From: Candidatus Omnitrophota bacterium
Lineage (GTDB): Bacteria; Omnitrophota; Gorgyraeia; Gygaellales; Profunditerraquicolaceae
Direction: 5' to 3'
Assembly: GCA_041645145.1 (NCBI GenBank)
Contig: JBAZQO010000001.1
Span: forward strand, 2,327-66,326
Length of the DNA stretch: 64,000 nucleotides
This document shows positions 5,206 to 63,415 of the stretch, piece after piece (within the stretch, counting starts at the first letter, position 1; each line of letters starts with the position of its first letter). The notes beneath the pieces are model-generated. The model searched no databases, was not told where the DNA came from, and saw only the letters and a list, made by a program, of their open reading frames with translations. Made by a program: the position numbers and the translations under genes.

Positions 5206-5222
5206 AAGATAACTTTTTAAAA

Positions 5223-7527: not shown

Positions 7528-7540
7528 AAACTACCCCTAA

Positions 7541-9517: not shown

Positions 9518-9547
9518 TATTTCACATTAGCTTATAGGAAAAGAATA

Positions 9548-10912: not shown

Positions 10913-11970
10913 TTTTGCTTTCTAAAGTTATTTTTTAAGATATCCCTTAAGCTGGCTGATTCCTGCCGGGCGTGACAATCCTGAAGGCAGTAATTACGGC
11001 ATTTTTTGATTTTAACCCTTCTTTTCTTAGCCTTAAGAGAAAACCAATTATTTTTTACCGAAGGCTCTCTTCTTATATTCCCGATTTCTTCGCCGCACAT
11101 TTGGATTGAGCCGCCGGGGACTACTACAAACCTGCGATAACCTGCAAAACAAACCCAATCACCCTCACACAGATCCCTCCTGAAATATTTCTTTATTAAA
11201 TAAAAACTGGGATAGTTCAGGCCGTATCCTTTCTGTTGAAGAAGATCGATTTTATCTATCATCTCATCCAGCTTTTTTAAACGGTCACCAGTAATCCACA
11301 AATTTCCTTCACTGCTCCCAGAGTCCTGCTTATACAACTTAACATTGTTCAGGACAACAGAAGTTATATACAAGGCGTCAACCGACAAACCTTTGGCAAG
11401 ATGGAAATATTCCTCTAATTCATCAAGGTTATAATTAGATAGGGTCAATATCAATACCTTGATTAATTTCTTTTCCTCCGGGGAATTATTTAAATGCCTT
11501 ATTCCCTGCATTATTTTATCGTAAGCGCCGGGTTGGGCTCTAATTTTATCATGCGTTTTGCCTCTGGCGCCATCAAGGGATATCGTAATTACATCAAGCT
11601 TAGACTGAATTAACCTTCTTGCCACCTCTTCAGTTATCAGCGTGCCATTCGTGGTTAGAATAACGGTTAAGCCCAGCGATTTTGCATATTCTATAACATC
11701 AAAACATATCTCGCACAAAAGAGGCTCTCCTCCGCATAGATTGACTTCCTTAACCCCCCATTCGCGGCACTGATTCAGAATATCCTTAATTTCTTTAAGG
11801 GTTAATTCCTCGCTTATGTTTGCAGCCTTCCATACGCTACACATCTCGCATCTAAGATTGCATCTACTGGTAAGGGATATCTGCAGGGTATCGGGTGGAA
11901 CAAGAGGGAAATTAATCTTTCGCGACAGCCAAAATCCGAAATCCCTTTTTATTTTATCAATTTTATTCAT
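10909..11970 (-). CDS. radical SAM / SPASM-domain protein (paralog 5)
   Basis: CNLRCEMC; CGGEPLLCEICFDVI. C-terminal CFAGYRRFVVVPGGSIQMCGEEIGNI...CRNYCLQDC. Confidence 0.75.
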   Translation of the reverse strand: MNKIDKIKRDFGFWLSRKINFPLVPPDTLQISLTSRCNLRCEMCSVWKAANISEELTLKEIKDILNQCREWGVKEVNLCGGEPLLCEICFDVIEYAKSLGLTVILTTNGTLITEEVARRLIQSKLDVITISLDGARGKTHDKIRAQPGAYDKIMQGIRHLNNSPEEKKLIKVLILTLSNYNLDELEEYFHLAKGLSVDALYITSVVLNNVKLYKQDSGSSEGNLWITGDRLKKLDEMIDKIDLLQQKGYGLNYPSFYLIKKYFRRDLCEGDWVCFAGYRRFVVVPGGSIQMCGEEIGNIRREPSVKNNWFSLKAKKRRVKIKKCRNYCLQDCHARQESASLRDILKNNFRKQK

Positions 11971-11991
11971 AATCCAGCGGTAATGTTATTT

Positions 11992-34090: not shown

Positions 34091-34725
34091 GCTATCGCCT
34101 CTTCTAAAGCCAGCTCCTCAATCTTTCTTTTAGCAATTTTACAGCGGCCCACGGCATTAGCCATCTGGTCACCTATATAAATCTTAATCAACCGAATATC
34201 CTCTTCTGCCTGCGGAATTTTAACCTTTTCAAAAAGATTAACCCGTTGAGTCGTAATGCGCAGTTCATGCCGCAATATGGCAATACCTTCCTGACGCATC
34301 AAGATCTCTTTTTTTAAAATAATAGTTTCCCTAAGCGCCTCGATTGCTGCGTCAATCCATAAAGGGGTAGAGAACAAATCATATTCGCCTGTGTCAAATT
34401 CCAACGCATCAAATACAGGGATATCCACACCGGCGATATTCTTAAAATGGGTATTTGTTTTGCTTGGCAATAAAAATGGTTTCAGGTCAACTTCCGGCTG
34501 ATTGAGCAAACCAATCCAGTGGTCAATCGCCTGTCTTTTTTTAATCAGAGATTGTTTTCTTTCTTCGAGGATTAAATTCTGCTGCAGGATTTCCAGCTGC
34601 AACTGCTGTTTTTTCAATTGCAAAGTAGGTAGATAGCGCTGGAATTGTTTTAATGCATCGCGCTGCCTCTTTAATTCACCCTTAGTAAGCCTTATCTTTG
34701 CCATTATTTCTTCAGCCAGCCCCAT
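34087..34725 (-). CDS. atpD: V/A-type ATP synthase subunit D (central stalk)
   Basis: 212 aa, highly helical with long coiled coil (LQLKKQQLQLEILQQNL...). It sits between B and I as in V-type operons. Confidence 0.7.
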   Translation of the reverse strand: MGLAEEIMAKIRLTKGELKRQRDALKQFQRYLPTLQLKKQQLQLEILQQNLILEERKQSLIKKRQAIDHWIGLLNQPEVDLKPFLLPSKTNTHFKNIAGVDIPVFDALEFDTGEYDLFSTPLWIDAAIEALRETIILKKEILMRQEGIAILRHELRITTQRVNLFEKVKIPQAEEDIRLIKIYIGDQMANAVGRCKIAKRKIEELALEEAIA

Positions 34726-34775
34726 TAGAAACAGGTTACCAGAGGCAACCGTGAGGTATCTCTGATGTATTGTTT

Positions 34776-36068
34776 CTAACGGGGCCAGTACTGCTCAACA
34801 ATTGAACGCTTGATCCCGGTTTCCTCCGGGCTGAAAGAATCCGCTAAGATTTGCCAACCCAGATCTAAGGCTTTTTCCAAAGGGATATTTACTTTAAGCG
34901 ACATCATGTTCTTTTCAAAAAGCTCCCCGTATTTAAGCAGTTTCTTATCCCAGGCGCTCATCTGAAAACCCATGGATTGTTTTTCAACAGTCTGGCGATA
35001 GCTGGCAAAAAGCTGGATCATCGTATCCATAATAGCGCGGTGGTCTGGCCGGGTCTTACCGTTTACCTGCTGCTTGAGCCGGCTTAATGAACCAAACGGT
35101 TCAATAACCCCATCTTTAAGATAAAACTGGCCCTCCGTAATATAACCTGTATTATCCGGGACAGGGTGTGTTACATCATCGCCCGGCATGGTAGTTGCCG
35201 CAAGAATCGTGATCGAACCTGCCCCTTCAAAATCAACTGCCTTTTCATAACGGCTGGCCAACTGACTGTAAAGATCCCCGGGATAACCGCGGTTAGAGGG
35301 GACCTGTTCCATGGTTATGGAGATTTCTTTTAAGGCGTCGGCAAAATTGGTCATATCGCTTAACAGGACTAATACGCGTTGGCCTTTTAAAGCAAAATCC
35401 TCGGCTACTGCCAGGGCCATATCCGGCACTAAAAGGCATTCCACCACCGGATCAGAAGCGGTATGCATAAAAAATATGGAACGGCTTAAAGCCCCGTGCT
35501 GCTTTAATGTCTCCTTAAAAAATAAATAATCATCATATTTTAGGCCCATGCCGCCTAGAATAATAATGTCGATCTCGGCCTGAATAGCGATCCTGGCTAA
35601 TAGTTCATTGTAAGGCTGGCCGGCAATGGAGAAAATAGGCAGCTTCTGCGATTCCACCAAAGAATTAAATACATCGATCATGGGGATGCCGGTGCGGATC
35701 ATCTTATTAGGCACGATTCTTTTTACCGGGTTAACCGGCGGGCCGCCTATATCAATCATATTCTCGGAAAGTTCCGGGCCACGGTCTAAAGGCATACCGC
35801 TGCCGTTAAATATGCGGCCTAATAGATTCTCTCCCGTGCCTACGCGCATAGGGCGGCCTAAGAAACGCACCTTATCCCCCGTAGAAATACCCCGGCTTCC
35901 GGCAAAGACTTGCAAAGACACTTTCCTGCCGTCAATACGGATGACCTGGGCAAAGCTTGAGCCCTGGCGCACCGAGACCTGGGCGACATCATTATAACCT
36001 ACCCCTTCAGCCTCAACGGTGATCACGTCTCCGGCAATCTGAATAATATTGGTATATACCTTTTGCAT
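34776..36068 (-). CDS. atpB: V/A-type ATP synthase subunit B (regulatory)
   Basis: 430 aa. The nucleotide-binding fold lacks a full P-loop, as expected for B subunits. Conserved blocks [32 protein letters not shown]. Confidence 0.85.
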
Positions 36069-36069
36069 T

Positions 36070-37824
36070 TTATTTTTCTTCCGGGATTCTCTTCTCTTCC
36101 AGTAATATAGAGATCTCTTCTTCGGTCTGCCTAAACTCTGCGCTCATCCAGGCGCTTGAATTCCAGGTACGCAACAGCTGCCTTAATCTCTGAAAAAAGC
36201 GCAAAGCCTTTTCTTTGTCCTCTAATTTAAAGTCGCTAAGCAGTATATTATGGATAAAATCAAATATATAAACCTGCCTTTCTTGAGATGTGGCCTCATC
36301 CACCGCATCAAAAGCATTCTGCTGCAGATAAACAAAATCAAAAAACTCACCCTTAAGATACCCTATGTAATCTTTAAGTGAGATCCCTTCCTCTCCGATA
36401 ACCTTCATCATCTGGGAGATCTCATAGCTTCTGCGCAAGGCCTCATGCCCGTAATTTTCTTTTTTCTCGTCGATAAATCCCTTATATTTGCTCCAGCTGA
36501 TCAGCGGGTCGATCGCCGGATACCTGCGCGCATCGGAACGTTCGCGGGAAAGGCCGTGAAATGCCCCCACTACTTTAAGCGTGGCCTGGGTAACCGGCTC
36601 TTCGAAGTTTCCTCCGGCAGGGCTGACTGCCCCTCCGATAGTAACCGAACCGAAAGAGCCGTCATGCAACCTGACTAACCCGGCCCTTTCATAAAAAGAG
36701 GCGATGCGCGATTCAAGATAGGCAGGAAATGCCTCTTCTCCCGGAATCTCTTCTAATCTTCCGGACATCTCGCGCATGGCCTGGGCCCAGCGCGAAGTTG
36801 AATCCGCAAGCAGCAAAACATTTAAACCCATCTGGCGGTAATACTCCGCCAGTGTCACCGCGGTATAAACGCTGGATTCCCTGGCAGCAACAGGCATAGA
36901 GCTTGTATTGCAGATGATCACTGTGCGGTCAATAAGCGGTGAGTTTGTGCGCGGATCAATTATCTCAGGGAAGCTCTTAAGTGTCTCAACTACCTCTCCG
37001 GCGCGCTCGCCGCAGGCGGCAATAATCACAATATCCACCTCTGCGTGGCGGCTGGTTAGTTGCTGTAAAACGGTTTTTCCCGCGCCAAACGGCCCGGGTA
37101 TGCAATAAGTGCCTCCGCGGGCCACCGGAAACAAGGAATCAATAAGGCGCATCTTGGTTATCAGCGGCTCGCCGGGCTTTAGTTTCTCGGCATATGCCTG
37201 GATAGGAATCTTAACCGGCCAAATCTGTTGTAAAAAAACATCATGTATTCTCCCCGCGGCATTTCTAACTTGAGCAATCGATTGCTTTAAATTATACTTT
37301 CCTGGCGCAGCGACATTTGTTACCTCTAGACTACCAGAAAGCGCGAAAGGAACCATAATATAATGCTTAAAGATTTTCTCTGGGACAAAACCCAACCAAC
37401 TGCCGGCTAAAACTTTATCCCCTAGTTTTACCAAAGGAGTAAAATCCCATTGCGCTTCATCAGAAAGAGCTTCGAGATATACGCCACGTTTAAGAAAAAA
37501 ACCACATTTTTCCGCCAATGCCGGAAGAGGATTTTGCAAACCGTCAAAAATCTGACCCAACAATCCCGGGCCCAACTCAACAGAAAGCAATTCATCACTA
37601 AATTCAACTTCTTGGCCAACCCTTAAACCCGCGGTATTTTCATAAACCTGCATCTCGGCGCGATTTTCTCTTACGCGGATTACCTCTGCCTTTAAACGCT
37701 CAGCGCCATGCAAAATATAGGCAACCTCATTCTGAATAATATGGCCATCGACTTCTGCGACAACCATATTGGCATTAACTTTTACGACGCGCCCGGTTCT
37801 TTTCTTTTCCATATTAGTTTGCAA
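36070..37824 (-). CDS. atpA: V/A-type ATP synthase catalytic subunit A
   Basis: 584 aa. P-loop GPFGAGKT. N-terminal beta-barrel plus the non-homologous insert typical of A subunits. Walker B region [17 protein letters not shown]. Confidence 0.9.
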
Positions 37825-42834: not shown

Positions 42835-44409
42835 TTATCTGCCCTTCTTATTCTTTGTCTTATAATACTCCTGCAAAGATTTGACTCTGAGTTTTTTCTT
42901 CAGCAGCACCTCTATACCGCCGACCGTGGCAAACGCCCCGAATATGGTCGTGGTATAAGGTATGCCATACAAAATAACCTGCGAGCGGATTTTTACCTCA
43001 TCAAGCCGGGGGATCCTGCCTGAGGGTGTATTGATCACCAGCTGGATCTTACCCTCCTTCATCAGGTCCAATATGTTTGTTTTCCCCTCGGAGATCTTAG
43101 GCAAAACCTTTGCAGAAATACTGCTCTTTACTAATGCCGCGGCTGTCCCGGCTGAGGCATAGATCTTAAAACCCATATCTTTTAGCTTCTTAGCCACCAG
43201 GATAACATCCCTCTTGTCCCGGTCATGCACGGAGATAAAGACATTGCCTTTTTTGGGCAGCTTCTGGCCTGCGGCTAACTGGCTCTTTATATACGCCTGG
43301 CCAAAATCCGCGTCAATACCCATAACCTCGCCGGTAGATTTCATCTCCGGGCCAAGAATTATATCAACCCCCGGGAAACGGTTAAAAGGGAACACCGATT
43401 CTTTGATCGACACGTGTTTAGGAATAATTTCTTTGGTAAAGCCGAGCCTTTTTAATTTTCTGCCCAGCATAACCTTGGTAGCCAGCTTTGCCAAAGGCAC
43501 CCCGATCGCTTTTGAAACAAAAGGCACGGTGCGGCTGGCCCGCGGATTGACCTCTAAGACATAAACCAGGTTATCCTTTACCGCATACTGCACATTCATT
43601 AACCCCACCACATTCAATTCTTTAGCCATAGCCACGGTTGCCTGGCGGATATTCTTTAATACTTCGGAGGATAGAGTGTAGGTGGGAATGGACATGGCTG
43701 CGTCGCCGGAATGAACCCCGGCCTGCTCAATATGCTCCATTATCCCGCCGATTATAAAATCCTGGCCGTCTCCAATTAAATCAACGTCAACCTCAATAGC
43801 ATCTTCCAGGAATTTATCAACCAGGATAGGATGCTCCCCGGAAACCTCCGCTGCCTCTTTGATAAATCTTTCCAGCACGCTCTGGTCATAAACAATCTCC
43901 ATGGCCCGGCCGCCTAATACATATGAAGGCCGCACCAACACCGGATATCCAATCCTGCTGGCTATCTCCTTTGCTTCGCTAAATGTAAATGCCGTGCCGT
44001 TAACCGGCTGCAAAAGGCCAAGTTTATCCAGCATCTGCTTAAAGCGCTTGCGGTCCTCGGCAATATCAATGCTATCAGCGCTTGTCCCAAGAAGATTGAC
44101 CCCGGCCTGGCGCAAAGGAACAGCCAGGTTAAGCGGGGTCTGGCCGCCAAACTGCACGATCACGCCAAACGGCTTCTCCAACTCAATAATATTCATGATA
44201 TCTTCAAAGGTAAGCGGCTCAAAATAAAGCCGGTCCGAGGTATCATAATCAGTGGAAACTGTTTCCGGATTACAGTTGACCATAATGCTAACAGCGCCTT
44301 CCTCTTTAAGCGCGTATGCCGCATGGCAACAGCAGTAATCAAACTCAATGCCCTGGCCAATCCTGTTCGGCCCGCCTCCTAAAATAACCACCTTTTTCTT
44401 CATTATCAA
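42835..44409 (-). CDS. carB: carbamoyl-phosphate synthase large subunit, C-terminal half (split carB: second ATP-grasp + MGS-like domain)
   Basis: 524 aa starting KVVILGGGPNRIGQGIEFDYCCCHAAYALKEEG, which corresponds to the start of the second CPSase ATP-grasp repeat (~residue 550 of full-length CarB). C-terminal MGS-like domain GNVFISVHDRDK...GFKIYASAGTA. No N-terminal half is present in this window. Confidence 0.8.
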   Translation of the reverse strand: MIMKKKVVILGGGPNRIGQGIEFDYCCCHAAYALKEEGAVSIMVNCNPETVSTDYDTSDRLYFEPLTFEDIMNIIELEKPFGVIVQFGGQTPLNLAVPLRQAGVNLLGTSADSIDIAEDRKRFKQMLDKLGLLQPVNGTAFTFSEAKEIASRIGYPVLVRPSYVLGGRAMEIVYDQSVLERFIKEAAEVSGEHPILVDKFLEDAIEVDVDLIGDGQDFIIGGIMEHIEQAGVHSGDAAMSIPTYTLSSEVLKNIRQATVAMAKELNVVGLMNVQYAVKDNLVYVLEVNPRASRTVPFVSKAIGVPLAKLATKVMLGRKLKRLGFTKEIIPKHVSIKESVFPFNRFPGVDIILGPEMKSTGEVMGIDADFGQAYIKSQLAAGQKLPKKGNVFISVHDRDKRDVILVAKKLKDMGFKIYASAGTAAALVKSSISAKVLPKISEGKTNILDLMKEGKIQLVINTPSGRIPRLDEVKIRSQVILYGIPYTTTIFGAFATVGGIEVLLKKKLRVKSLQEYYKTKNKKGR

Positions 44410-48942: not shown

Positions 48943-48974
48943 CAAAAAAAATCCGCCACATTATTTTGGCGGAT
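48943..48974 (-). terminator. PyrR-type transcription attenuator: intrinsic terminator hairpin + U8 tract in the pyrR leader
   Basis: Minus-strand RNA reads GCAUCCGCCA aaauaaug UGGCGGAU UUUUUUUU, an 8-bp GC-rich stem, 8-nt loop and U8, ending 11 nt before the pyrR ATG. Confidence 0.6.
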
Positions 48975-48984
48975 GCTTTTACAA

Positions 48985-49045
48985 TGATACAATTTTATTT
49001 TCATTTTATTTACCTTGCCAGCTTCACGGAGCCGGACTTAAAGGT
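48985..49045 (-). promoter_or_regulatory. candidate PyrR-binding anti-terminator region of the pyr leader
   Basis: The leader RNA contains AAGUCCGGCUCCGUGAAGCUGGCAAGG, with a CCGGCU/AGCUGG stem and purine-rich flank GCAAGG. This resembles PyrR binding-loop consensus elements (UCC...GAGGCU...GCAAGG) and lies upstream of the terminator. Confidence 0.35.
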
Positions 49046-49057
49046 TTATTTATTTAC

Positions 49058-49092
49058 ATAAATATAGCATCTAAAAAATAGCTTGTCAAGCC
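49058..49092 (-). promoter_or_regulatory. putative sigma70-type promoter for the pyr operon
   Basis: Minus strand has TTGACA (plus ~49085-49090), then 19 nt, then TATATT (plus ~49060-49065). Perfect -35 but the spacer is 1-2 nt longer than optimal. Confidence 0.35.
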
Positions 49093-49108
49093 ATTAATTC
49101 ACAGGCTC

Positions 49109-49138
49109 GTAGGTAACAGGCATGCCTGTTACCTACGA
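49109..49138. terminator. perfect 30-nt palindrome (13-bp stem, CATG loop)
   Basis: cgtaggtaacagg catg cctgttacctacg. The two arms are exact reverse complements. It lies between the giant-gene stop and the pyr promoter. Confidence 0.5.
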
Positions 49139-49150
49139 ATTTCGCAAATA

Positions 49151-49218
49151 AAAGGGACGCTTAATTGGAGACCTTCTTATTGGCTGATAAACCTTTGGGA
49201 AGGTTAGCGTCCCTTTTA
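49151..49218 (-). terminator. long-range stem (12 bp) enclosing an inner hairpin, immediately 3' of the giant ORF stop
   Basis: aaaagggacgct ...45 nt... agcgtccctttt. The inner part has ccttc..gaagg pairing. On the minus strand it is followed by UUAUUUG. Confidence 0.45.
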
Positions 49219-52200
49219 TTGAGCTATCAATTGTGGCTCTTTAGCGAGAACCTGCACCTTTGCTAATGCCAGTCTTAATTCATTTACCGGTTTATCCGAT
49301 TCAAGTAGAACCAGGATTTCTCTTAAAGATGATTCCGTGTAACAGGCCTTTTCTTCCTCCTGCCTTAGGATATCCGCAATGCAGGCAAGAACCTTATCTA
49401 CCTGGCTATTTGGATCTTGCAAAGACAAAAGATATTCTCTTAAGCGTTCGCAGGAGGGAGCTATGCCTGAATTTGCCATCCTCTCTATCTCCTGCCATTC
49501 TTTATCAGAAACAGGGACAGGCCCCTTCGGGGACAGTCCCTGTTTTAAAGCTTTTGATGCCGCCATCGGCTGGATAACCGTATTCTTGGACAATGACCGC
49601 ATATCAATTCCGCCGACATTTTCTTCAAGTGGGCTAGCGGTCTTAGTTTTATCATATACTGCATCATATTGCTCCAGGGTGGCACCGTTGATTCTCCGCC
49701 AATGCCAACGCTCTCCTCCATCAATAATTTCCTTTGTTGGATCCTCGTAGCCATCGAAATGTGGCGCAAATCTTCCTCCAGCTCCGGTAACAACAGGCGA
49801 GGTATAAATATCACTGAACGGTTTACCTCGTTCTTCAATCTCTTTTTTTACAACTGCTTGAATAAAATTAGCAGGTATATTGTTAATACCGGATTCGCGT
49901 AAGCTTCTTACTTCTTTTTTCTTTCTCTCAATATATTCCAACTTCAAAATTTCTCCTTCTTGTCGAATATGCGTATAGACAGCTACACTATTATTAACAA
50001 CTCCAAAATATAGTTTTCCGCCTGTTGATGGCCTAATTAAAGCCAATGCCTGGTCATATTGTTTGCCCGACAATTCTCCAAGTAGACTGATTTCAATTTC
50101 ATTGTCATTTGCGGCGATAGCAACATCTTGCCCAAGCTGTTGCTCTAGGCTAGCAGATCGATCTTGCGTGGCAACCGGCGAGCCGGCTGACTCACCGTAT
50201 ATGCGTTTCTCAGTATAATTATACTTCTGGCCATCATTTAGGCTGCCAACTTTTTCTTTTAACCTCCAGAAATCGCCATTTACCGGATTTATGATATTTT
50301 CGTAGAGATCCTTTATTTGTTCGTCATTTTGACAGGAAAAAAATGCTCTGCGATTTTTCACATATCTTGCATCGTTCCCCCAATAATACTCTAATGACAA
50401 ATATAACTTAATCAGACGGCTATAATATGCTCCTTCGGGATTTTTGGTAACATCAATGAGGCTGTTTAAGTCGGTTTTTAGTATGGCTATTTGGTTCAGG
50501 ATTACTTGCTCGCGTTGCCCCGAAGAATGAAGCCAGTTTACGACCTGGATATTTATGTCCATGTTGTCAGCCAATCCCGATATCCCCATGGAACTAACTG
50601 ATTGTTTAATTTTATCGGATAATTCGCGCTTGAACCCAAATTCCTCGCCTCGTTTTGCCCAGGGCACAGCAATATCTATATCTCTGATAGAATCTAGGGG
50701 CACCAACCCCGATTCATCCGCCAAATATCTGGCGCTGCCTACCAAGACAGCATCGCTACCTGCAGCTTCCTTCAACATAGATTCAAATAATCTTATGTTC
50801 AACCAAATGCTCCCGTCTTCTTTAGCTATAGTTAATCCGCTAACAGGAGAACTGGCGGGCTTGCCTGCAACCGGCGAGCCGGCGGATTGCTGCTGCATCC
50901 GACCAGCTATTACTTCTCCATAATTATTTTTAATCCAGGACAATATGTAATCCCTTCGATGTTTCAAGGTGTCTTGCAAATAAGTCCGGTCAACTCTGCT
51001 CATGCGTATACTATCCACTAAGGTGTTAATAGCGTCATCAGTTAGCCGTGTTTTTAAAACCGCTCCTTGTTCAATAATATCTTTTGGGGTTAGTCCATAT
51101 GCTTCATAGGCCTGGCGCATACCATAGCCTAATCTCTCAAAATTATCACCTCTTTCGAGTTCTCGAACGGGAGCCTGTGGCCCAAACAAATCTTTGTCCT
51201 TTCTTTGTCCGCGTGCACGGAAAAGTAGTGCGCCTCCATTATCTATCCTATAGAGCAACCCTCCGGAAATCAATGTATTGCGATCTATAGCGTAAGGAAT
51301 ATCCCAGTTAGCCATTAAGGTATCTGCCAAAAATCCATGGATAACCAGCTGCTTATGTGCCTCGAGAGTAGCTGTCATGTCAAGGGGCAATATCCTAGAG
51401 GCATGCCCATAGTTTCCGGCGACTTTAACGATTTTTGTTTCAGGAACAGGGATTCCGAGAACTCTGTACAACTTATTTGCCAAATCCTCTACCCAAATAT
51501 GTGACTCCTCTTCATGCTGGGCAAACTTCACATAATATGGTGAAGGACCGCTATCTGTAGGAACGGTGAATTCTGCTCCGGGATTGCTTCCTTTTTGTTC
51601 GCCTGTCTTTAGAGAATAATCCCATACTTCAACTGGAACTGAATAGTTGAAGTTTGAACGGATAGAATCATATTCATCAGCGCTGAATAATAACGTTCCT
51701 TGCAAATTATAAAGAGGAATATAAAAGCCATTTTCTACAATTGCTCTCTTGACCTTTTCCAATGTCTTATCGGGACTACGCAAGACGATTGATGCTATCT
51801 CAGTTGCTGGCATTCCTCCTAAAAGTAGCGAGTGATGAGAAGAAGGCCCATACTCTTTCCCTTCCTCCCAACATCCCTTTCCGCGATGATATACATACCA
51901 TAACTGACCATCTGACCCTAATAAACCTCTACCCCCATAACCGTTTGAAAGTGATGCGGTGATAATACGCTCCGTCTCCTGGTGCAGCCCTATAAAATCC
52001 CGCGTAAGACGGGTGAAATCTACATGGAATGGATATGAATCGGTTGTCGCTCCTTCACCCAATGCCTCTCTAGGAAGATTGCCGTTTCTAAGCACAGATT
52101 CAAGGACATCAACTGTCGAACCATGCAAATAATCTCCGTCTTGCAAACTTAATTTCTTAATGACGACTTGCCGGTTTCGTGCATCTGCTTCGGCTTTACT

Positions 52201-55200
52201 TTTCTCGTCCTGACTTGTTTCTATTGTTTGTTTTAAATAGTGCCGAAAAATCCACGGCTTATAGTCAGTTTCCAGTTCCGAAAATGGAATAGAATGAATT
52301 TGTCCAGACTCTAGCTGGGTAATCAAGGACTGATTAACAACTATGCCCTCTAATCGCGTCTTTGTGTTCGGATTGTTCTGTTTAGCCGCTATATGTTCTG
52401 CGACAATATCAGTCAAAGGAACAACTGTCCCATCTTCAAATGCTATCTCAGTTAACGGATACTCAGACGCAGCAGATCTTAATTGCGAACCAAGCCGCGT
52501 CTCAGCAAAAAGAAACAATTGCTGCCAATACGCTGTGGGCTTCGTAAATATTGATTCAATTACCTGGGCTCTAGCTACCGCATTATCATTGGAGAAAATA
52601 TCCTGCATGATAAGCATGCGGTTTTCATGTAAAGGGCCACCAACTTGCAAAAGACTAAAAAGATTTGGTGCGTATTCCGATAGAGATACGATTTCATTAA
52701 TCTTGTCTGGCCTGCGCGCCAGATATGCCAACACAGCTTTATCTAAATAAAAATCTTGATGTACGTATAACTTCCCGTTCGGCTCAAAAAGATTCATAAG
52801 CAACATCTGTACGGCTTTATTAAATAAAACATGGTGCTTCTCGTCCGCTGTCCTGTAATCCCACCTTGCTTTCAATTGATAATCAGTAGAGCCTAACCAC
52901 TTCAAGATTCCATTAGTTAACGCCTGCGATAGAAAACCCTGCGCTTGCTGGATTGTATAGAGATGATAAAAGAACGGCCGTAGGCCTTCATTCCTATTAG
53001 CGTAAAATCGCATCAAATTCTCATACGGATCTATAATAAAAATCCTATCGTAGCCTCTCGGGCTATCCTTATTGTTTTCTATTTCATAAAATAAGTGGTA
53101 CTGAAAATCGGGGGATATCTTTTTAATTTCGTAAAGCGCACTGATTATGTCGGCTTTTTGTTCATATATCCCTGGCAAAATCTTATAATGCTCAATAGAG
53201 AACAAGTATCCAAGGGGTCTCAAATCTTCTATGCATTGTACAATTTCATCTCGGTTAGCTAACATAATATACTGTTTAAGATATTCAGGATCATAGAAGC
53301 CCCCATATCCGGTTTCATAGATATCGCGGACTCTTTTAAGAAATGAAATTGTTTTTTTCAAGGCCTGAATCTTTTGTCTAGTGGAAGCGTGAGGAGGAAA
53401 ATAATCATCCCCTAAAGCGGGGATGAATAAACTAATCTCGGAGTCTGCAATACCCTCCTTTTCTATAGTAGCCAAAAACATCTGGGGTGCAAGAGCACGG
53501 ATTTTCTCCTGCAGGTAATCTGGCACATGTGTGAAACTACGCAGGACGACCTCCACAGCGGCAAAGTTATTCGGATCATCGAAGTATCGTGATTTAAAGA
53601 CGACCATGTCTAAAAGCTCTGCCTGCAACCGATGATTACGCGAAGTCCGTAAAATATCTTCCATAATTGCGTATCCTAGGCTCAAATTTACATCCTTGAG
53701 GCGCTCGAGAAGCGCCATAACAAAAAACTGTTTAGCTTCATTATATCCTCCTCTCCCATCTCTCTCCCGGAGGAAAGTTATACACATCTCTGCTAAATTT
53801 TGCTTAATTTGCTTATAAATAGGATTGTCTACAAGAGATGCGGACATTGTTCTATCCTTAACAATACCTGGCTGCATACCGATATCTTTACAGGCGCTCT
53901 CAATCGCTTCCCGCAAAGATAAAACTGTGTCTCTTCTTCCTATTTCCCAAATTGTCTCCTCTCTGCCTTCTTGATAAGCAAACATTAACTCATCAAATTT
54001 GTCTATGTTAGGAGAAAAATACCTTTTCTCAAACGCTTCTTTTAATCGTTTCCATTCAGGATTGTCAATCATCAACGCGCTATAAGTATTAGGGTGAGTG
54101 CGTACTGTCTCAATGATTTCTATTAAACCCGGGATATTTTTCTGCTTTAAGGTAATTCGTTCGCTTTCAGTCAGAGACAATATGAAATAGGTCACCCGCC
54201 CTGGGAGAAAAGGATACTCTCCTGAATAGCCCGGCTCTCTCCAAGAATTCATAATAATTAAAGGTGCCAATTCTACTTTTAATCCCGGGCTTTCTTCTGC
54301 TAACCAGAATAATCGATATCCTAAGTCGATTGATTCATTTGTATGTTCTTTTTCCTCAAGCAGATCATTAACCGTTCGCTTAGCAAGTGTTCGCTCAAGC
54401 GCATCGAACGTATAGTCGCCAAACATACTTTTGATTTTAGGGTTAGCCTTGAATGTACTCCAGCGTTGCTTGAAGCTTTCATTTATAAAATGATCTTTAA
54501 GAATTGCTTTAGGCATCAATGAGATATCCAACGGCAAATTCTCTCGGTGTTCGCTAATATGCCGTTCAACATTGGCCGTGATATTTCCTGATCCTATCCG
54601 GATAAATTCTTTTCTCATTGTATTTTGTTTAGCTTCGCTTTGGCCTAATGTGTCTCTGATTATTTCTTTTACTTGGTTCACCAAAGATATGGGTAAATTT
54701 TCCGCTTCAAGAGCATTGATAAAACTCAAGAGCAATTCATGCGCATGTTGTCTTATCAATAAATCGGTTATTCTCCCATATGCTTTATCTTGGTCGCCCC
54801 GTTGTAGACCGATCTGTCCGCCTAATTCACTTAGTTTAAAACTACACTCTCGATTTAATTCATCGAGCCTGTTATTCCGCTGGCGAACGCGATCGCTCTC
54901 TTCCTGGCTTCCCCCCCATCCACTATATATTGCGGCAATTCCTTCTCTTAGCTGTTCTCTTGCAAGCGCCAAGTACTCCTTGGCCTGCTCAGGAGTTATA
55001 TTTCCTTTTCGCTCTAACTCACGAAGCCCCGGCATTATTTTCTTATCTATCAATTCTTCATTTAATTCTGCGTATAAGCTATCATTATTTACTAAAGACT
55101 CTTCCGCCCGAGTATATTTTGCCAAAACCCCAGTTATAATGCTCTTTATTTTATCAAGATATTCCACACATTTATCGTCCATTTCGTTTTGCAACGACTC

Positions 55201-56853
55201 TGTTCTTGAGTTGAGCTGATTAATCTCATTGGCGATTTCTTGTTTCTTATTTTCTAACTGCAACTGGAGAGTATCAATTTCTGACTGCATTCGTGTTATA
55301 TTTTGCTTTGTGTCTTTTCGCATCCCCCAACTCTTGAACCAAATCAACCAGGGCTTATTTTTTTCATCACGCAAAATCTGTTTTTCCTTTTCTATATTAC
55401 CTTGGATTTCTTCTATTTTTGTTTTAGATATAAAATCTGCCTGTTCTCTTTGTTTTATCAAGATAGCTATTCTCTGTTCACGTGCTTTCTTCTCTTGTTC
55501 TAATCCTTTAATTCTTTCTTTAAGCCCAGCAATGTTTATTAGATCATTTTTAAAAACCGCTTCTATCTCTATGCCGATAGTACCTAAGGGAAAACTGGTC
55601 GACTTGGACTGTAAAGTCGCCGACGAGCTGGCGGCGGGCGGCTGCTCAACCGCAGATGAAGCTAGCTCTGTTTCCCCATCAAAAGGATTGCTTACAATAC
55701 CACCTTTAAATTTAAAGCCTAATCCATATGGCCGAATTAACGCCTTAGCATCTCTCCGCAGTACAAGTCCTTGCGTAATCGCTGAAGATACTGATGCCAA
55801 AGCAATGCCACCACTCATATAGCTCCTGATAGTCTGACCATAGGGAGTGTAGCGCGGCTCTTTAATGTTATATTCTCCTTGCTGGAAAGAAGCTTTGTAG
55901 GCATTAAAGTAAGTTGTTTTAGACCAAGAGGTTTTGGAGGTTAAACCAGTCAGGTTGTGTCTGTCTATGAGGTAGGGATATACGCCTGATTTACCGTAGA
56001 ATTTCTGTTTAAACCACTGCGCCAGGATAAGTGAATAGTAAACCTGCCTTAAGGGAGCGTATCTTTTGGAGGAATTAATTTCTTTGGTTAACTTAGGAAT
56101 AATGGTTTCTCTGATGAGTTGTGAGGAGTATTCGTTCAGAGCTTTGGAGCGCTCATCCTTGAAATTATAGGTAGATGAATCCTTAAGATAGTCTTGCTCA
56201 AGCATGACCTTCAGCGTGGCTTTGTAGATGTAAGCATTGTCAGAGCTCTCTCTGATGATGATTTCATCCGGGACTATCCATGGACGAGTGAGCGTAGGAA
56301 TGGTTATATTTTCAGAACCGTAGAGCTCTTCTGCTTTCTTGTAAAGCTTGTCCCAATAGTCTTTTCCTTCTAGAGTTTGGGGGGAGGTAAAATTAGCGGT
56401 ATCTTTCTTTAGCTGGAGGTCTGCCTCAAGCAGAATCTTTCCTACGTCAGTTTCGCCCAGTTCGCTATCTATAATGTTGTCTTCTGCATCTGGCCTTAAA
56501 TTTACCCAAAAGGCTTCATTGGGCAAGGATATGCCGATGAAAAAATAATTGAGCAGGGTTTTGGTTTCTTGTTGCAAACTCTCCTTAGGGTCAGTTCCCT
56601 TCGGGGACAGACCCTTCACAAAATCTCCTTTGTCTAGAAGCAGATTAAAGTTGTTGACGCTTGGGTCATAAGAGAGGTACCTTAAATGAAGAGGCCGGAA
56701 TCTGTCCTGAATGAAGCTATTTCGCAGGGCAAGAAAATGGCTTGAGAGATCCAACTCTCCGGCAATTTGGGCAAAGCCGGATTGCTCAAATACCATGAAA
56801 AAACATATGGCAATAGCAATGATTTTAAATAATTTACTAGATTTAATCTTCAT
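49216..56853 (-). CDS. giant secreted/surface protein (2545 aa), largely alpha-helical with coiled-coil segments; contains an atypical kinase-like motif region
   Basis: Signal peptide MKIKSSKLFKIIAIAICFFMVFEQSGFAQIA. Heptad-rich region around residues 430-560. Low-complexity linkers (PPAASSSATLQS; GESAGSPVA twice). Region ~1700-1790 HGFLADTLMANWD...LLYRIDNGGALLFRARG has the D-x4-N ... D-x-G spacing seen in protein-kinase-like folds. Confidence 0.6.
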   Translation of the reverse strand: MKIKSSKLFKIIAIAICFFMVFEQSGFAQIAGELDLSSHFLALRNSFIQDRFRPLHLRYLSYDPSVNNFNLLLDKGDFVKGLSPKGTDPKESLQQETKTLLNYFFIGISLPNEAFWVNLRPDAEDNIIDSELGETDVGKILLEADLQLKKDTANFTSPQTLEGKDYWDKLYKKAEELYGSENITIPTLTRPWIVPDEIIIRESSDNAYIYKATLKVMLEQDYLKDSSTYNFKDERSKALNEYSSQLIRETIIPKLTKEINSSKRYAPLRQVYYSLILAQWFKQKFYGKSGVYPYLIDRHNLTGLTSKTSWSKTTYFNAYKASFQQGEYNIKEPRYTPYGQTIRSYMSGGIALASVSSAITQGLVLRRDAKALIRPYGLGFKFKGGIVSNPFDGETELASSAVEQPPAASSSATLQSKSTSFPLGTIGIEIEAVFKNDLINIAGLKERIKGLEQEKKAREQRIAILIKQREQADFISKTKIEEIQGNIEKEKQILRDEKNKPWLIWFKSWGMRKDTKQNITRMQSEIDTLQLQLENKKQEIANEINQLNSRTESLQNEMDDKCVEYLDKIKSIITGVLAKYTRAEESLVNNDSLYAELNEELIDKKIMPGLRELERKGNITPEQAKEYLALAREQLREGIAAIYSGWGGSQEESDRVRQRNNRLDELNRECSFKLSELGGQIGLQRGDQDKAYGRITDLLIRQHAHELLLSFINALEAENLPISLVNQVKEIIRDTLGQSEAKQNTMRKEFIRIGSGNITANVERHISEHRENLPLDISLMPKAILKDHFINESFKQRWSTFKANPKIKSMFGDYTFDALERTLAKRTVNDLLEEKEHTNESIDLGYRLFWLAEESPGLKVELAPLIIMNSWREPGYSGEYPFLPGRVTYFILSLTESERITLKQKNIPGLIEIIETVRTHPNTYSALMIDNPEWKRLKEAFEKRYFSPNIDKFDELMFAYQEGREETIWEIGRRDTVLSLREAIESACKDIGMQPGIVKDRTMSASLVDNPIYKQIKQNLAEMCITFLRERDGRGGYNEAKQFFVMALLERLKDVNLSLGYAIMEDILRTSRNHRLQAELLDMVVFKSRYFDDPNNFAAVEVVLRSFTHVPDYLQEKIRALAPQMFLATIEKEGIADSEISLFIPALGDDYFPPHASTRQKIQALKKTISFLKRVRDIYETGYGGFYDPEYLKQYIMLANRDEIVQCIEDLRPLGYLFSIEHYKILPGIYEQKADIISALYEIKKISPDFQYHLFYEIENNKDSPRGYDRIFIIDPYENLMRFYANRNEGLRPFFYHLYTIQQAQGFLSQALTNGILKWLGSTDYQLKARWDYRTADEKHHVLFNKAVQMLLMNLFEPNGKLYVHQDFYLDKAVLAYLARRPDKINEIVSLSEYAPNLFSLLQVGGPLHENRMLIMQDIFSNDNAVARAQVIESIFTKPTAYWQQLFLFAETRLGSQLRSAASEYPLTEIAFEDGTVVPLTDIVAEHIAAKQNNPNTKTRLEGIVVNQSLITQLESGQIHSIPFSELETDYKPWIFRHYLKQTIETSQDEKSKAEADARNRQVVIKKLSLQDGDYLHGSTVDVLESVLRNGNLPREALGEGATTDSYPFHVDFTRLTRDFIGLHQETERIITASLSNGYGGRGLLGSDGQLWYVYHRGKGCWEEGKEYGPSSHHSLLLGGMPATEIASIVLRSPDKTLEKVKRAIVENGFYIPLYNLQGTLLFSADEYDSIRSNFNYSVPVEVWDYSLKTGEQKGSNPGAEFTVPTDSGPSPYYVKFAQHEEESHIWVEDLANKLYRVLGIPVPETKIVKVAGNYGHASRILPLDMTATLEAHKQLVIHGFLADTLMANWDIPYAIDRNTLISGGLLYRIDNGGALLFRARGQRKDKDLFGPQAPVRELERGDNFERLGYGMRQAYEAYGLTPKDIIEQGAVLKTRLTDDAINTLVDSIRMSRVDRTYLQDTLKHRRDYILSWIKNNYGEVIAGRMQQQSAGSPVAGKPASSPVSGLTIAKEDGSIWLNIRLFESMLKEAAGSDAVLVGSARYLADESGLVPLDSIRDIDIAVPWAKRGEEFGFKRELSDKIKQSVSSMGISGLADNMDINIQVVNWLHSSGQREQVILNQIAILKTDLNSLIDVTKNPEGAYYSRLIKLYLSLEYYWGNDARYVKNRRAFFSCQNDEQIKDLYENIINPVNGDFWRLKEKVGSLNDGQKYNYTEKRIYGESAGSPVATQDRSASLEQQLGQDVAIAANDNEIEISLLGELSGKQYDQALALIRPSTGGKLYFGVVNNSVAVYTHIRQEGEILKLEYIERKKKEVRSLRESGINNIPANFIQAVVKKEIEERGKPFSDIYTSPVVTGAGGRFAPHFDGYEDPTKEIIDGGERWHWRRINGATLEQYDAVYDKTKTASPLEENVGGIDMRSLSKNTVIQPMAASKALKQGLSPKGPVPVSDKEWQEIERMANSGIAPSCERLREYLLSLQDPNSQVDKVLACIADILRQEEEKACYTESSLREILVLLESDKPVNELRLALAKVQVLAKEPQLIAQ

Positions 56854-59659: not shown

Positions 59660-62600
59660 TTACTCTTCCTCCTCGGCGATTACCGGGGCAACGCAGGAAA
59701 CCCGGTCTTTATCCTGCAGCTTAATCAACCGAACACCTTGCGCTGAACGACCGGTTTCACGGATATCCTTTATGGCGCAGCGCAAGAATATGCCATTTTG
59801 AGTAATTACCATAAGCTCATCATTGTCATTTACGGTCTTTAAATTTACTGCCTGGCCGTTCTTATCCGTAACCTTAATATTGATCACCCCTTTGCCGCCG
59901 CGGCTGGTTAAGCGATACTCATCAATGGTGGTGCGTTTTGCAAAACCCAATGCCGTAACCGTCAATATTGTAGAATCCTTTTGCGGGACAACCATATCGA
60001 TAACTTCGTCCTTTTTAGCCAGAGATATCGCGCGCACGCCATGCGCCCCCCTGCCCATATCGCGCACATTTTCCTCAGAAAATCTTATGGCCTTACCTTG
60101 CCTGGTCCCGATAAGCAGTTCCTGTTTTCCGTCGGTCATCTCCACGCCGATCAACGCGTCATCCTTATCTAAGGTAATCCCGATAATCCCGCCTTTGCGC
60201 GGATTACCATAAGCCTCTAGCTTAGTTTTCTTAATTTGCCCCAGCTTAGTCACCATGACCAAATATTTATCCGGTGAAAAATCCTTAACCGGAATAGTAG
60301 AGCTAATTTTCGCTACCTGCTCCATCTGCACCAAATTCACAATAGCCTTGCCCTTAGAGACACGGCTAGCTTGGGGTATCTCATAAACCTTTAGCCAGTG
60401 CACCTGTCCTTTATCTGTAAAAATCAAAAGGTAGTCTTTGGTAGAAGCCACAAAAAGATGTTCACTAAAATCTTCCTCTTTTAAATCCGCTCCGGTTGCC
60501 CCTGTGCCCCCGCGTTTTTGCTTACGGTATGCGCTTACCGGCAGGCGCTTAATATAGCCACCATGACTAATTGTCACCACTACATCCTCATCGGCAATTA
60601 AATCCTCAACCTCCAACTCTTCTGCTTCACCCACTATATCTGTACGCCTTTGGTCACCATATTTTTTCTTTAAATTATCCAGCTCTTCCTTAATAATCCC
60701 TTCAATTTTTTTATCCGAACCTAAGATCGCCCGGCAGATTTCAATTTTCTTTAAAAGCTCGGCATACTCCGCGTCAATTTTATCGCGCTCAAGAGCAGTT
60801 AAGCGCTGCAACTGCATTTCAAGAATTGCCTGCGACTGCAACTCCGAAAGCTCAAACTCCTTCATTAAGTTTACCTTGGCCGCCTCAACACTCTTAGAGG
60901 TCTTAATGACTTTGATAATCCGGTCAATAAACTTAAGCGCTATCTTTAAACCTTCTAAAATATGCGCGCGCCTTAAAGCCTTGTCTAATTCAAACTGGGT
61001 GCGTCGGCGGATAACAATCTTGCGATGCTCAATATAACAATCTAATACCTGGCGTAAATTTAATACCCTGGGCCGATTATCCACCAGAGCCAGCATAATA
61101 ATGCCAAATGTGGTTTCCAGTTGAGTATGTTTAAAAAGTTGATTCAAAACAATCTGGGATTCGATATCACGCTTAAGTTCAACCACAATGCGCATGCCAT
61201 CCTTATCAGATTCATCGCGGATATCAGATATGCCTTCAATTTTTTTATCATCAACCAAAGCCGCAATAGCTTCAATAAGCCCCGATTTCTGCACCTGATA
61301 AGGAATTTCAGTAATAATAATTAAATCTTTGCCATTCTTTTGATGCTCTACAGTTGCCCGGGAACGTATGAGTAATTTACCTCTTCCGGTAGTATACGCA
61401 TCTTTAATCCCCGCCTTGCCGCAGATTAATCCTCCAGTAGGAAAATCCGGCCCTTTTACATAACGCATCAGGTCCTTAATCTCTGCCTCGGGGTGATCAA
61501 GTAGATAAATAATGGCATCACAAACTTCATTTAAATTATGCGGCGGTATATTGGTGGCCATGCCCACGGCAATACCGCTTGAGCCGTTGACTAAAAGATT
61601 GGGAAGGCTCGCCGGTAAAAGTAAAGGCTCCTTTAAAGAAGAATCAAAGTTCGGACCAAAATTAACGGTTTCTTTTTCAATATCACCAAGCATCTCTTCA
61701 GAAACCGCAGCCAGGCGGGCCTCGGTATTATGACTTATGAATCCATTGGATACAAATGAGTGACATGGACTATCCACTTTAATTGAATAGACTCTTTTCT
61801 TACCGGCATCTTCTATCGAAACAATTTTATCAAAGATATATCTATTTTTTATCAAACCCTCAAACAAACTAACATCGTCTTTATCAAGAGCCCTTCTTAG
61901 CCTAGGCCAGTATTTTTCTATTTTTGGGTACCTATCGATGTTGTGTTTTTTTAGCCATTCTATGTTCCCCCAATATTTTCTCCTGCACCGTGTGCTTTTT
62001 TTACGAATATAGTCGGCGATGTAGGGAATAAAATCTGTCTTGGACATAGCCCAATCAGTTTTATTGCGATTACAAATATCTATCAGCCTTTCACGACTTT
62101 TCTTGGTAGCAAAATTTATTTGATTTTTAAATAAATCGAGATTATTGCGGCCTCTAATAAACAACCTAAAATAGTTTTTTTGCTTATGAAATCTATGCGA
62201 AGAATCGATGCCAAACATTAGCAGAAAAACTTGTAAACCTTGAATCAATTTTCCGCTGGTTGATATCAAGCTAACATCGGGGTTTCTCTTGCCAACACAA
62301 ATACTACCATCTCCCTCCGCATAACCTTTTATAAATGCAGCAACCGATTTTTTCGAGGAAGAAAAAATTATATCTGGAATGGTTTTATCATAAGCTCGCA
62401 ACTGGCGTAACCCTAGATTTTTCAAAAAATCTATAACATGCATTGAATGAATTTCTAAATAAGTACACTTCTTTTTCCCATAACCCAATGGTTTTCTTAC
62501 AAATTCATGCAGCCTGCAATCGGGGAATACTCGCTGGAAGCACGATTTAAATTCCCGTAGAAACTCTTTATCCCCATTACAGAATCCAATTTGTTCTTTG

Positions 62601-63415
62601 CTAATAGAACCTTCTGAAATTAGCGCTCCCAAAATAAAGGCCAGATCTGCATTCATAGCGCGAGGGAGTTTATGACCCTGCCTTCTGTTTCGAAGTTCTG
62701 GATAAAATTTCTTTAATAAAGGTTCCCTTGAAGGGAATAACAAACCGCTCCTGCTGACTACGACAAAATCGCCATTTTCTACATTATTCAATAGTGTCCA
62801 AACTAATTTTGGCTTTGTTCCATTGCGTTGCCACGTTAAAATAGGATGATTCAGGCTCCCGCATAAGCTAAAACCTCTAAAGGTAGTAATTTTTTTAGTT
62901 AAATGCTCTCCGGAATCAAACCATTTTGAAACATGATTTATCTTATTATTGCATGAAAGTACTCGAAAATCTGTTTTGGAATGATGGGGCAGCTCGTCTA
63001 TTCTTTGCAGTCCTTTATCTGTAACAATCAGGGCGTCGCCGGTGACGCAGTATCTCATCGCCGCAGCTGCGTCCCCGTCGACCGATCCGAAATTTCCTTG
63101 ACCATCCACGAGCGGATAGCGCAGGGAAAAATCTTGTGCCATGCGCACCAGGGTATCATAAATAGCCACATCACCATGTGGATGATACTTACCCATGGTT
63201 TCACCGACAATACGCGCACATTTCTTATAAGGCTTAGAGTGTTCGAGATTAAGCTCCTGCATTGCGTAAAGAATTCTGCGATGCACCGGCTTTAACCCGT
63301 CGCGCACATCAGGCAGGGCTCGACCGACAATTACGCTCATTGCATAATTCAAATAGGAGTCTTTAACCTCGTCCTCAATATAAACCGGAATTATTTTTTC
63401 GTTGCGTGTATACAT
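59660..63415 (-). CDS. gyrA: DNA gyrase subunit A interrupted by an in-frame intein (1251 aa precursor; ~810-aa mature GyrA)
   Basis: The N-terminus has the GyrA-box region through ...[10 protein letters not shown] (catalytic Tyr). Canonical GyrA resumes at [10 protein letters not shown].... C-terminal beta-pinwheel repeats and acidic tail are present. Confidence 0.9.
61727..63049 (-). mobile_element. GyrA intein (441 aa) with LAGLIDADG homing-endonuclease domain, inserted directly after the active-site Tyr
   Basis: Starts CVTGDALIV (Cys1, block A). Ends ...[11 protein letters not shown] (block G His-Asn), followed by extein Thr+1. Two LAGLIDADG motifs ([14 protein letters not shown]; [14 protein letters not shown]). 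Coordinates +/-2. Confidence 0.8.

Follow-up and report, generated by a model that had tools for sequence, protein, structure and literature searches.

A very large Omnitrophota protein family with conserved ends and a rapidly replaced interior, represented by a 2545-residue protein with a predicted ADP-ribosyltransferase-kinase didomain

The gene at 49216..56853 (minus strand) of a 64,000-nucleotide stretch of DNA from a Candidatus Omnitrophota metagenome-assembled genome (contig JBAZQO010000001.1; the whole stretch is called the window below) encodes a protein of 2545 amino acids (aa) and is one of the members of an Omnitrophota family that is very large, so far undescribed and built on a 'bookend' plan: two conserved end domains enclose an interior which, judging from the comparisons given below, turns over by gain, loss and replacement of whole modules, at a pace far above that at which the ends or the adjacent genes change. 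The product exactly matches the deposited "hypothetical protein" WC616_00260, and its gene is read from the minus strand, which is the coding strand for every gene of the window. With moderate confidence we propose that the protein is a Sec-exported, MARTX-like carrier of multiple effectors, whose conserved ends would serve for export or delivery and as recombination arms. The initial annotation, made from the letters of the DNA, had correctly described a 7.6-kb open reading frame (ORF); it made no mention of the conserved bookends, the fixed chromosomal slot or the fact that the interior is wholly different even in close relatives. A literature search, itself incomplete, returned no mention of the bookend domains, the housekeeping slots or the interior turnover either. 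The gene and its conserved parts are:

49216..56853, minus strand: whole gene, 2545 codons plus stop, ATG start, one uninterrupted ORF.
56770..56853, minus strand: putative Sec-type signal peptide, residues 1-28, with a Lys-rich n-region, a hydrophobic core (3-21) and a G-F-A↓Q site, assigned by a hydropathy heuristic.
55804..56769, minus strand: N-terminal bookend domain, residues ~29-350, found with 60-94% identity in thousands of proteins and ending with the invariant S347-G348-G349.
49219..49614, minus strand: C-terminal bookend, residues 2414-2545, with a G-G-I-D start, a variable loop and then a conserved, helical-looking stretch of ~100 residues.

A search with the full-length protein yielded at least 594 relatives with lengths of 1,400-4,400 aa, and all those that carry an organism name are from Omnitrophota, as the initial attribution of the ORF to this phylum had it. 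Local BLAST comparisons with 119 relatives revealed that only residues ~1-410 (60-83% identity) and ~2402-2545 (40-85% identity) are homologous, and that the ~2,000 residues between these ends match almost nothing. An exhaustive search with residues 1-350 as the query reported 7,461 representative proteins at E<=1e-3 (5,633 at E<=1e-30), with lengths from 444 to 7,391 aa and with the match always positioned at the protein N-terminus. The C-terminal domain is also present in 62 of the 94 proteins newly returned by the N-domain, and the shortest complete member among those checked has 724 aa. The N-domain exhibits more than 90 invariant positions in 25 sequences, and no relative of it was found in Pfam, NCBIfam or PDB. 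In 106 of 120 proteins the GGID motif that opens the C-domain is found a single time, ~131 residues before the end. Residues 2400-2545 have no match in Pfam and 0 families in NCBIfam, and the curated models of known C-terminal sorting signals (T9SS CTD, PEP-CTERM, LPXTG and similar) were not matched. An apparent relationship of the C-domain to a designed pentatricopeptide-repeat protein (E-value 1.8e-7) was rejected, as the score is the sum of ten insignificant repeats of one 25-residue match, which corresponds at most to a resemblance to a helical hairpin. Thus far, neither of the two bookend domains appears to match a known fold or family. Gly-Gly-Ile is found at both boundaries of the interior cassette, in residues 347-350 (DNA ~55804-55815) and 2414-2417 (49603-49614), and in 7 relatives the N-domain ends with SGGID; the shared tripeptide could be a site of processing or what is left of a domain that was formerly contiguous.

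The turnover of the interior is most directly seen in comparison with two relatives of the window (loci L121 and L122): their identity to the window is 69-97% in the flanking proteins, 86% in the N-domain and 74-85% in the C-domain, and their interiors have no match to that of the window at E<1e-5. At the DNA level, the homology to close relatives runs from the upstream gene to residue ~365-401, breaks off, and resumes at residues 2413-2414, precisely at the GGID motif. The DNA identity with L121 is 92% in the 3' arm versus ~82% in the 5' arm and flank, a difference that hints at separate recombination histories of the two arms. Among 15,753 pairs of family proteins the identities of the N- and C-domains are correlated (r 0.63). 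No interior is shared in 99 of the 138 pairs with N-domains 80-90% identical, pairs at 90-97% share mosaics, and near-identical pairs can differ by insertions or deletions of several hundred residues. The cargo of the window protein is absent even from its closest metagenome relatives (N-domain 84-88% identical), and a few of its modules recur, at ~30-40% identity, in otherwise unrelated members of the family.

Across the family the interior spans ~250 to ~7,000 residues and consists of enzyme modules joined by linkers of the type (A/G/S)(G/S)SP(V/I/L), a motif observed 217 times in 120 interiors against 4 expected. Pfam identified in the relatives a broad repertoire of cargo, including metallophosphoesterase, GNAT, methyltransferases, HATPase_c, ABC1 with an M48 peptidase, MidA and GGDEF, as well as HD, NUDIX, radical SAM, M23, transglycosylase, glycosyltransferase, hexokinase, PGK and PGM domains. 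The interior of the window protein is divided as follows:

54994..55566, minus strand: coiled-coil-like stretch, residues ~430-620, Lys/Glu/Gln-rich, with weak coiled-coil-type profile matches; start of the lineage-specific interior.
52669..54993, minus strand: region of ~780 residues (~621-1395), of which 824-1127 and 1292-1439 (the latter extending into the next feature) recur at ~30% identity in two family members.
51622..52668, minus strand: residues ~1396-1744, a helical lead-in and an ADP-ribosyltransferase-fold domain (~1564-1744) with conserved H1577 in HG[ST] and E1685.
50920..51621, minus strand: predicted atypical protein-kinase-like domain, residues ~1745-1978, with the G1755-S-N-P-G1759 loop, K1776, E1789, D1851, N1859 and D1871.
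50836..50886, minus strand: linker SAGSPVAGKPASSPVSG, residues 1990-2006, with two copies of the inter-module linker motif.
50197..50835, minus strand: module of residues ~2007-2219, 28-40% identical to three family members, with an invariant G-S...D-x-D.
50170..50196, minus strand: linker GESAGSPVA, residues 2220-2228, with 17 nucleotides (nt), GCCGGCTCGCCGGTTGC, identical to those of the first linker.
49639..50169, minus strand: last interior module, residues ~2229-2405, for which no relative was found.

Searches of the whole protein against Pfam, NCBIfam, PHROGs and PADLOC gave weak coiled-coil-type matches or nothing, and phmmer against the PDB sequences gave nothing. The long coiled-coil stretches of the initial annotation thus shrink to weak profile matches in residues 439-616. 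GESAGSPVA, which had been said to occur twice, is found once (residue 2220); the string that does occur twice is SAGSPVA (~1990-1996 and 2222-2228), the same 17 nt encoding both copies. The G-S...D-x-D pattern of residues 2007-2219 was considered as the signature of a nucleotidyltransferase, a candidate rejected because neither a 4-sequence profile searched against PDB nor Pfam provided support for it.

The kinase-like region suspected initially from motif spacing proved to be the distal half of a didomain. A search with residues 1470-1900 identified proteins ~50% identical over ~1396-1975, plus distant ones sharing only ~1749-1975, and some distant relatives of the kinase domain are fused to phage MuF or ADP-ribosyltransferase (ART) domains. 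A 14-sequence profile of the distal half matched, among the PDB entries, the Helicobacter pylori kinase CtkA over the catalytic segment (E-value 4.5e-4), with the aspartates of the NWD and IDNGG motifs aligned to those of the 'NFD' and 'DCG' motifs of CtkA (D1851 corresponding to CtkA D155). The kinase profile retrieves 167 proteins from many bacteria, mostly small and unannotated, some of them fused to ART, dual-specificity phosphatase, NUDIX or HD domains. The AlphaFold2 model of residues 1475-1980, built from a 113-sequence alignment, has a mean predicted local distance difference test score (pLDDT) of 90.4 and a predicted template modelling score (pTM) of 0.87, and the kinase-like region exhibits the bilobal protein-kinase-like fold. 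G1755-S-N-P-G1759, K1776 and E1789 are invariant in the 14 sequences, with G, S, K and E nearly invariant in the 113, and D1851, N1859 and D1871 are invariant or near-invariant in both alignments. Residues ~1745-1978 are therefore predicted, from alignment and model, to be a kinase of the CtkA/HipA/CotH/PI4K2 type with a protein-kinase-like fold and an intact catalytic set. The catalytic pair proposed initially, D1844/N1849, was misplaced, since the Asp and Asn aligned with CtkA are D1851 and N1859 (NWD...DRN), but the Asp of 'IDNGG' (D1871) does align with the metal-binding Asp of CtkA. The preceding residues, ~1564-1744, are an ART-like domain with the fold of the DarT/Tpt1 branch, in which H1577 of HG[ST] is kept in all homologs covering this position (5 of 5) and E1685 in 9 of 10, the alignment being shallow here (5-10 sequences).

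Strong hydrophobicity in the 2545-aa protein is confined to residues 3-21 (Kyte-Doolittle 1.77), which follow a Lys-rich start and precede a (-3,-1) small-residue site, G-F-A↓Q; the charges are laid out as Lys-rich before the hydrophobic core and acidic after it. The hydropathy scan found no further transmembrane (TM)-like segment above 1.4, and 'SGFAQ' at the putative cleavage site is nearly invariant across the family. Hydropathy and residue pattern fit a Sec signal peptide in residues 1-28, in line with the initial annotation, which had postulated one. We propose that the protein is exported by the Sec route and carries several effector enzymes, comparable in this to a small Archaeovorin or a MARTX toxin, and that the conserved ends provide export, anchoring or delivery. 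Because they are the only conserved DNA, the ends could also act as homology arms through which cargo is exchanged by recombination. The kinase and ART modules, which depend on ATP and NAD, may act inside a target cell, host or prey, and not in the periplasm of the producer, since they are preceded by a signal peptide and no other TM segment, and since the phylum is considered host-dependent or predatory (PMC10066038; 10.1101/2023.11.21.568195). We count the fusion of kinase-module relatives to toxin-type domains as support for an effector role. Of the two roles suggested initially, 'secreted effector' is compatible with all these results, but the 'adhesin-like' character was not borne out, as the scans with Pfam, NCBIfam, PHROGs and PADLOC detected neither repeats nor domains of adhesin type.

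A signal peptide without a further TM segment would also suit a multi-enzyme scaffold that resides in the envelope as a component of a 'coat', in the periplasm or at the surface, and serves the physiology of the producer with no delivery into another cell. The peptidoglycan and sugar enzymes of the relatives (M23, transglycosylase, glycosyltransferase, PGM) and the conserved slot among housekeeping genes point in the same direction, and extracellular coats and sugar processing have been proposed for Omnitrophota giant proteins (PMC10066038; 10.1101/2023.11.21.568195). However, the kinase and ART modules, like HATPase, ABC1, GGDEF, radical SAM and NUDIX in the relatives, need ATP, NAD, GTP or S-adenosylmethionine, which are not expected outside the cytoplasm, and a housekeeping role is hard to reconcile with the complete replacement of the interior between near relatives; we consider such a scaffold rather unlikely. 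The same types of cargo, typical of cytoplasmic enzymes, would be at home in a membrane-tethered signalling or metabolic hub, with the hydrophobic segment as an uncleaved anchor and the bulk of the protein in the cytoplasm of the producer. About half of the long Omnitrophota proteins have been classed as TM-anchored cytoplasmic, and a regulatory module of methyltransferase, HATPase, GNAT, HAD and HD has been described in them (10.64898/2026.06.07.730766). Nonetheless, the charge distribution and the conserved G-F-A↓Q fit an N-in/C-out export with cleavage, and the near-invariant residues at the putative cleavage site in thousands of proteins suggest processing, so that a cytoplasmic hub seems to us distinctly improbable.

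Analysis of the genomic neighborhood revealed a slot with the order dnaA-dnaN-gyrB-gyrA-glmS-TP_methylase, giant gene, pyrR-pyrB-pyrC ... carB, which is shared, in full or in part, by the window and four relatives (with giant proteins of 1970, 3665, 2195 and 1591 aa). The TP_methylase gene is located upstream in 27 of the 72 metagenome loci with enough upstream DNA, a count by which we rejected a single copy in one slot as the general rule; the other recurrent upstream neighbours are an EF-G-like gene (17 loci) and a cyclophilin gene (12 loci). The locus of one homolog (P0029) is represented by gene calls only. Since the recurrent upstream neighbours differ among the 72 loci, the family has at least two or three recurrent slots, i.e. 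paralogs. The neighbour in the second slot (L138 and 16 other loci) is a 1054-aa gene with a long charged/coiled N-terminal extension fused to an EF-G-like GTPase.

The downstream neighbour bears on another possibility, namely that the protein is a classical polymorphic toxin of interbacterial competition with an adjacent immunity protein. The kinase-like domain also occurs in proteins with MuF and ART fusions, which are typical of polymorphic toxins, and the rapid exchange of the variable part would be expected of such a toxin. However, the variable part is internal and multi-modular instead of being a C-terminal tip, the C-terminus is conserved, and the scans of Pfam and NCBIfam revealed no Rhs, PAAR, CDI, LXG, WXG or MuF trafficking domain. 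Directly downstream lies pyrR, which is preceded by a promoter and an attenuator-like terminator of its own and is therefore no immunity candidate. In our opinion this explanation is very improbable.

Several observations also weigh against the Sec-exported effector carrier that we prefer. About 60% of the metagenome loci lie in other genomic contexts, no secretion, delivery or immunity gene adjoins the giant gene, whose neighbours are housekeeping genes, and the signal peptide was assigned by eye and from hydropathy only. Additionally, Pfam, NCBIfam, PHROGs and PADLOC assign no function to residues 430-1395 or 2007-2405, and no recognisable fold was found for the N- or C-terminal end domains. 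An extension of the effector-carrier reading, to be regarded as tentative and somewhat doubtful, is that the family constitutes a dedicated system of cargo exchange: an export or delivery chassis would be kept at a few fixed slots in most Omnitrophota and its modules would be shuffled by recombination through the ends, possibly with the help of palindromic DNA elements (see below), to give a fast-evolving arsenal against host or prey. If this were true, the N- and C-domains would represent a new type of secretion or translocation module.

The palindromes in question underlie a peptide, GLSPKG, to which the initial annotation had drawn attention near both termini. There are exactly two copies, in residues 81-86 and 2439-2444, although the second begins 107 residues from the C-terminus and not ~40 as had been stated. 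They are encoded, as also noted then, by nearly identical DNA within inverted repeats: the shared CTGTCCCCGAAGGG (2 matches, versus 0 expected in 100 shuffles) is embedded in two imperfect hairpins.

56588..56614, minus strand: first copy of the palindromic element (GGGTCTGTCCCCGAAGGGAACTGACCC), differing from the canonical 27-mer at 4 positions; codes for GLSPKGTDP, residues 80-88, in a loop.
49514..49540, minus strand: second copy of the palindromic element (GGGACTGTCCCCGAAGGGGCCTGTCCC), differing from the canonical 27-mer at 2 positions; codes for GLSPKGPVP, residues 2438-2446, in the variable loop of the C-domain.

The canonical element is a 27-nt palindrome, GGGACWGTCCCC-N3-GGGGACWGTCCC, whose translations in three frames are GLSPKGTVP, GQSPAGTVP and RDSPLRGQSL; GTVPxGDSP is also seen. 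The exact palindrome was found at more than 118 loci (set L003-L120) in species-representative genomes, several per genome and often in pairs 41-46 nt apart, from Omnitrophota, Aminicenantes, Actinomycetes, Gammaproteobacteria, Planctomycetota, Saccharibacteria and others, and frequently inside long ORFs in low-GC genomes. No bacterial literature on the 27-nt sequence was found. Among 214 family proteins (P0001-P0120 and P0253-P0346), 43 instances of the peptides derived from it are in N-domains, 11 are in C-domains and none is in the 308,114 interior residues. The family-consensus loop at the N-site is shorter and has no GLSPKG, and some members carry related inserts at this site, in two or three other loops, or even in the c-region of the signal peptide. 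In the c-region of P0036 and P0072 there is a second palindromic insert, translated as LPAGRQ(A/V)A, which could be encoded by the palindrome CTGCCTGCCGGCAGGCAG, and an A-F-A↓Q site is kept.

Identical hexapeptides in both conserved ends of one protein could represent a functional signal, e.g. a protease or sorting site, as the emphasis on a (K/Q)GLSPKG motif at both termini had implied. However, both sites carry the motif in only 2 of 120 homologs, the N-site copy is an insertion relative to the family consensus, and the same palindrome is spread over many phyla and is translated in other frames (RDSPLRGQSL, GTVPxGDSP). The spacing between 'GLSP' and 'GTVP', i.e. the hairpin loop, varies while the stems persist, which suggests a feature of the nucleic acid. 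A functional peptide signal is therefore hardly credible, and by all appearances the GLSPKG repeat is a by-product of a 27-nt palindromic DNA element that is present here in two decayed copies, both in frame. Two other interpretations of the palindrome were rejected: as a common repeat of the host genome (there are two copies in the 64-kb window and none in 20 kb of the flanks of a relative), and as the boundary of the cassette (the boundaries are at residues ~365-401 and 2414, the palindromes at 80-88 and 2438-2446).

The remainder of the window provided several observations on the neighbourhood of the giant gene. A perfect 32-nt palindrome (TCGTAGGTAACAGGCATGCCTGTTACCTACGA, 49107-49138) is positioned between the giant gene and the pyrR promoter; the DNA homology to L121 stops immediately ahead of it, at a place where an AbiEi/AbiEii pair is inserted in L121. 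A near-consensus promoter (TTGACA-17-TATATT, 11/12) followed by a terminator-like hairpin and T-run that overlaps the called pyrR start (48951-49089, minus strand) looks like a pyr attenuator, with the Rfam PyrR model scoring below threshold; the Rfam scan of the 64-kb window reported four tRNAs only. The promoter scan 5' of the giant gene gave no match. The GyrA protein (59660-63415, minus strand; 1251 aa) carries an intein with a LAGLIDADG homing-endonuclease domain and is intein-free, with 810 aa, in the relatives L001 and L122; an intein-like insert is present in GlmS of the metagenome locus L140, and an intein in an MJ0043_C-type gene of L121. The carB-like gene (42835-44409, minus strand; 524 aa) comprises one ATP-grasp half and an MGS domain, a half-size form also found in L121, and L001 has a 1079-aa carB with a separate carA. 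Further away are a V/A-type ATPase operon (32315-37824, minus strand) and clustered genes for glycosyltransferases and radical-SAM proteins (B12-binding, SPASM), together with one for an ABC-type ATPase (1527-16629, minus strand), none of them secretion-related.

The Omnitrophota, as yet uncultured and for the most part ultra-small, are bacteria suspected to live on other cells. Their very long proteins are thought to be central to this lifestyle, but descriptions of them have stressed poor conservation and the difficulty of comparison. Here, two conserved end domains define more than 7,000 representative proteins at recognisable slots, and a library of candidate effector modules can now be compiled from the interiors, in which the ART-kinase didomain is a defined, expressible unit with named candidate catalytic residues. 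The family raises the questions of what role the conserved ends have and how the cargo is exchanged so fast. The GLSPKG result, in turn, documents a cross-phylum, 27-nt palindromic element able to sit in frame inside genes.

Repetitive extragenic palindromic (REP) elements are short, GC-rich and dispersed in many genomes, often as tandem pairs, and the Rickettsia palindromic elements (RPEs) sit in frame inside genes. The GLSPKG DNA resembles the former in being a short, GC-rich, dispersed and often paired palindrome (for REP elements see PMC3733652 and PMC3184786) and the latter in its in-frame position within a gene, but it differs from both in having only 27 nt, in occurring with the same sequence across many phyla and, within the bookend family, in being confined to the end domains. 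The kinase domain shares with CtkA (H. pylori JHP940), HipA, CotH and the type II PI4-kinases the Gly-rich loop, the Lys, the Glu, the catalytic Asp/Asn and the metal-binding Asp; it differs from the CtkA/HipA-type kinases in its low identity (~18%), in the lack of a match to any Pfam model, in the D-x7-N spacing instead of D-x4-N, and in being embedded in a 2545-aa protein behind an ART-fold domain. Compared with DarT and Tpt1(KptA), the ART-like domain has no sequence-level match to any ART family, and its candidate catalytic residues are set by alignment position only.

The Archaeovorins and other giant proteins of Omnitrophota have 10,000-147,000 aa, mostly with many TM helices, and are often encoded near type II/IV secretion and PilZ genes; signal peptides are common among them and a role in the interaction with host or prey has been proposed (10.1101/2023.11.21.568195; 10.64898/2026.06.07.730766; PMC10066038). 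They have been reported to be mostly sequence singletons (10.64898/2026.06.07.730766). Of the known systems they are the closest in phylum and cargo, with HATPase, methyltransferase, GNAT, HAD, HD, GGDEF, NUDIX, radical SAM, PPDK, sugar enzymes and HEAT in common. The window protein agrees with them in its Omnitrophota origin and in the mixed repertoire of enzyme domains of its relatives, but with 2545 aa, one hydrophobic segment, and gyrA, glmS, methylase and pyr genes as neighbours it falls outside their range of size, TM content and genomic context. In contrast to the Archaeovorins, the bookend family has lengths of 0.7-7 kaa, one N-terminal hydrophobic segment, conserved end domains and housekeeping slots.

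The MARTX toxins of Vibrio and relatives are large secreted proteins with conserved N- and C-terminal regions that flank a central array of unrelated effector enzymes; this array differs between strains through recombination, and the effectors act inside the target cell. The MARTX hallmarks, i.e. RtxA-type glycine-rich repeats and the cysteine-protease processing domain, were not detected with Pfam and NCBIfam, and no transporter genes are found nearby; the bookend family further differs from MARTX in its N-terminal Sec-type signal, its sequence-unrelated end domains and its phylum. In layout, nonetheless, MARTX is the closest of the known systems, as conserved ends around what appears to be a recombining central array are found here as well, a resemblance that would be one of logic and not of membership.

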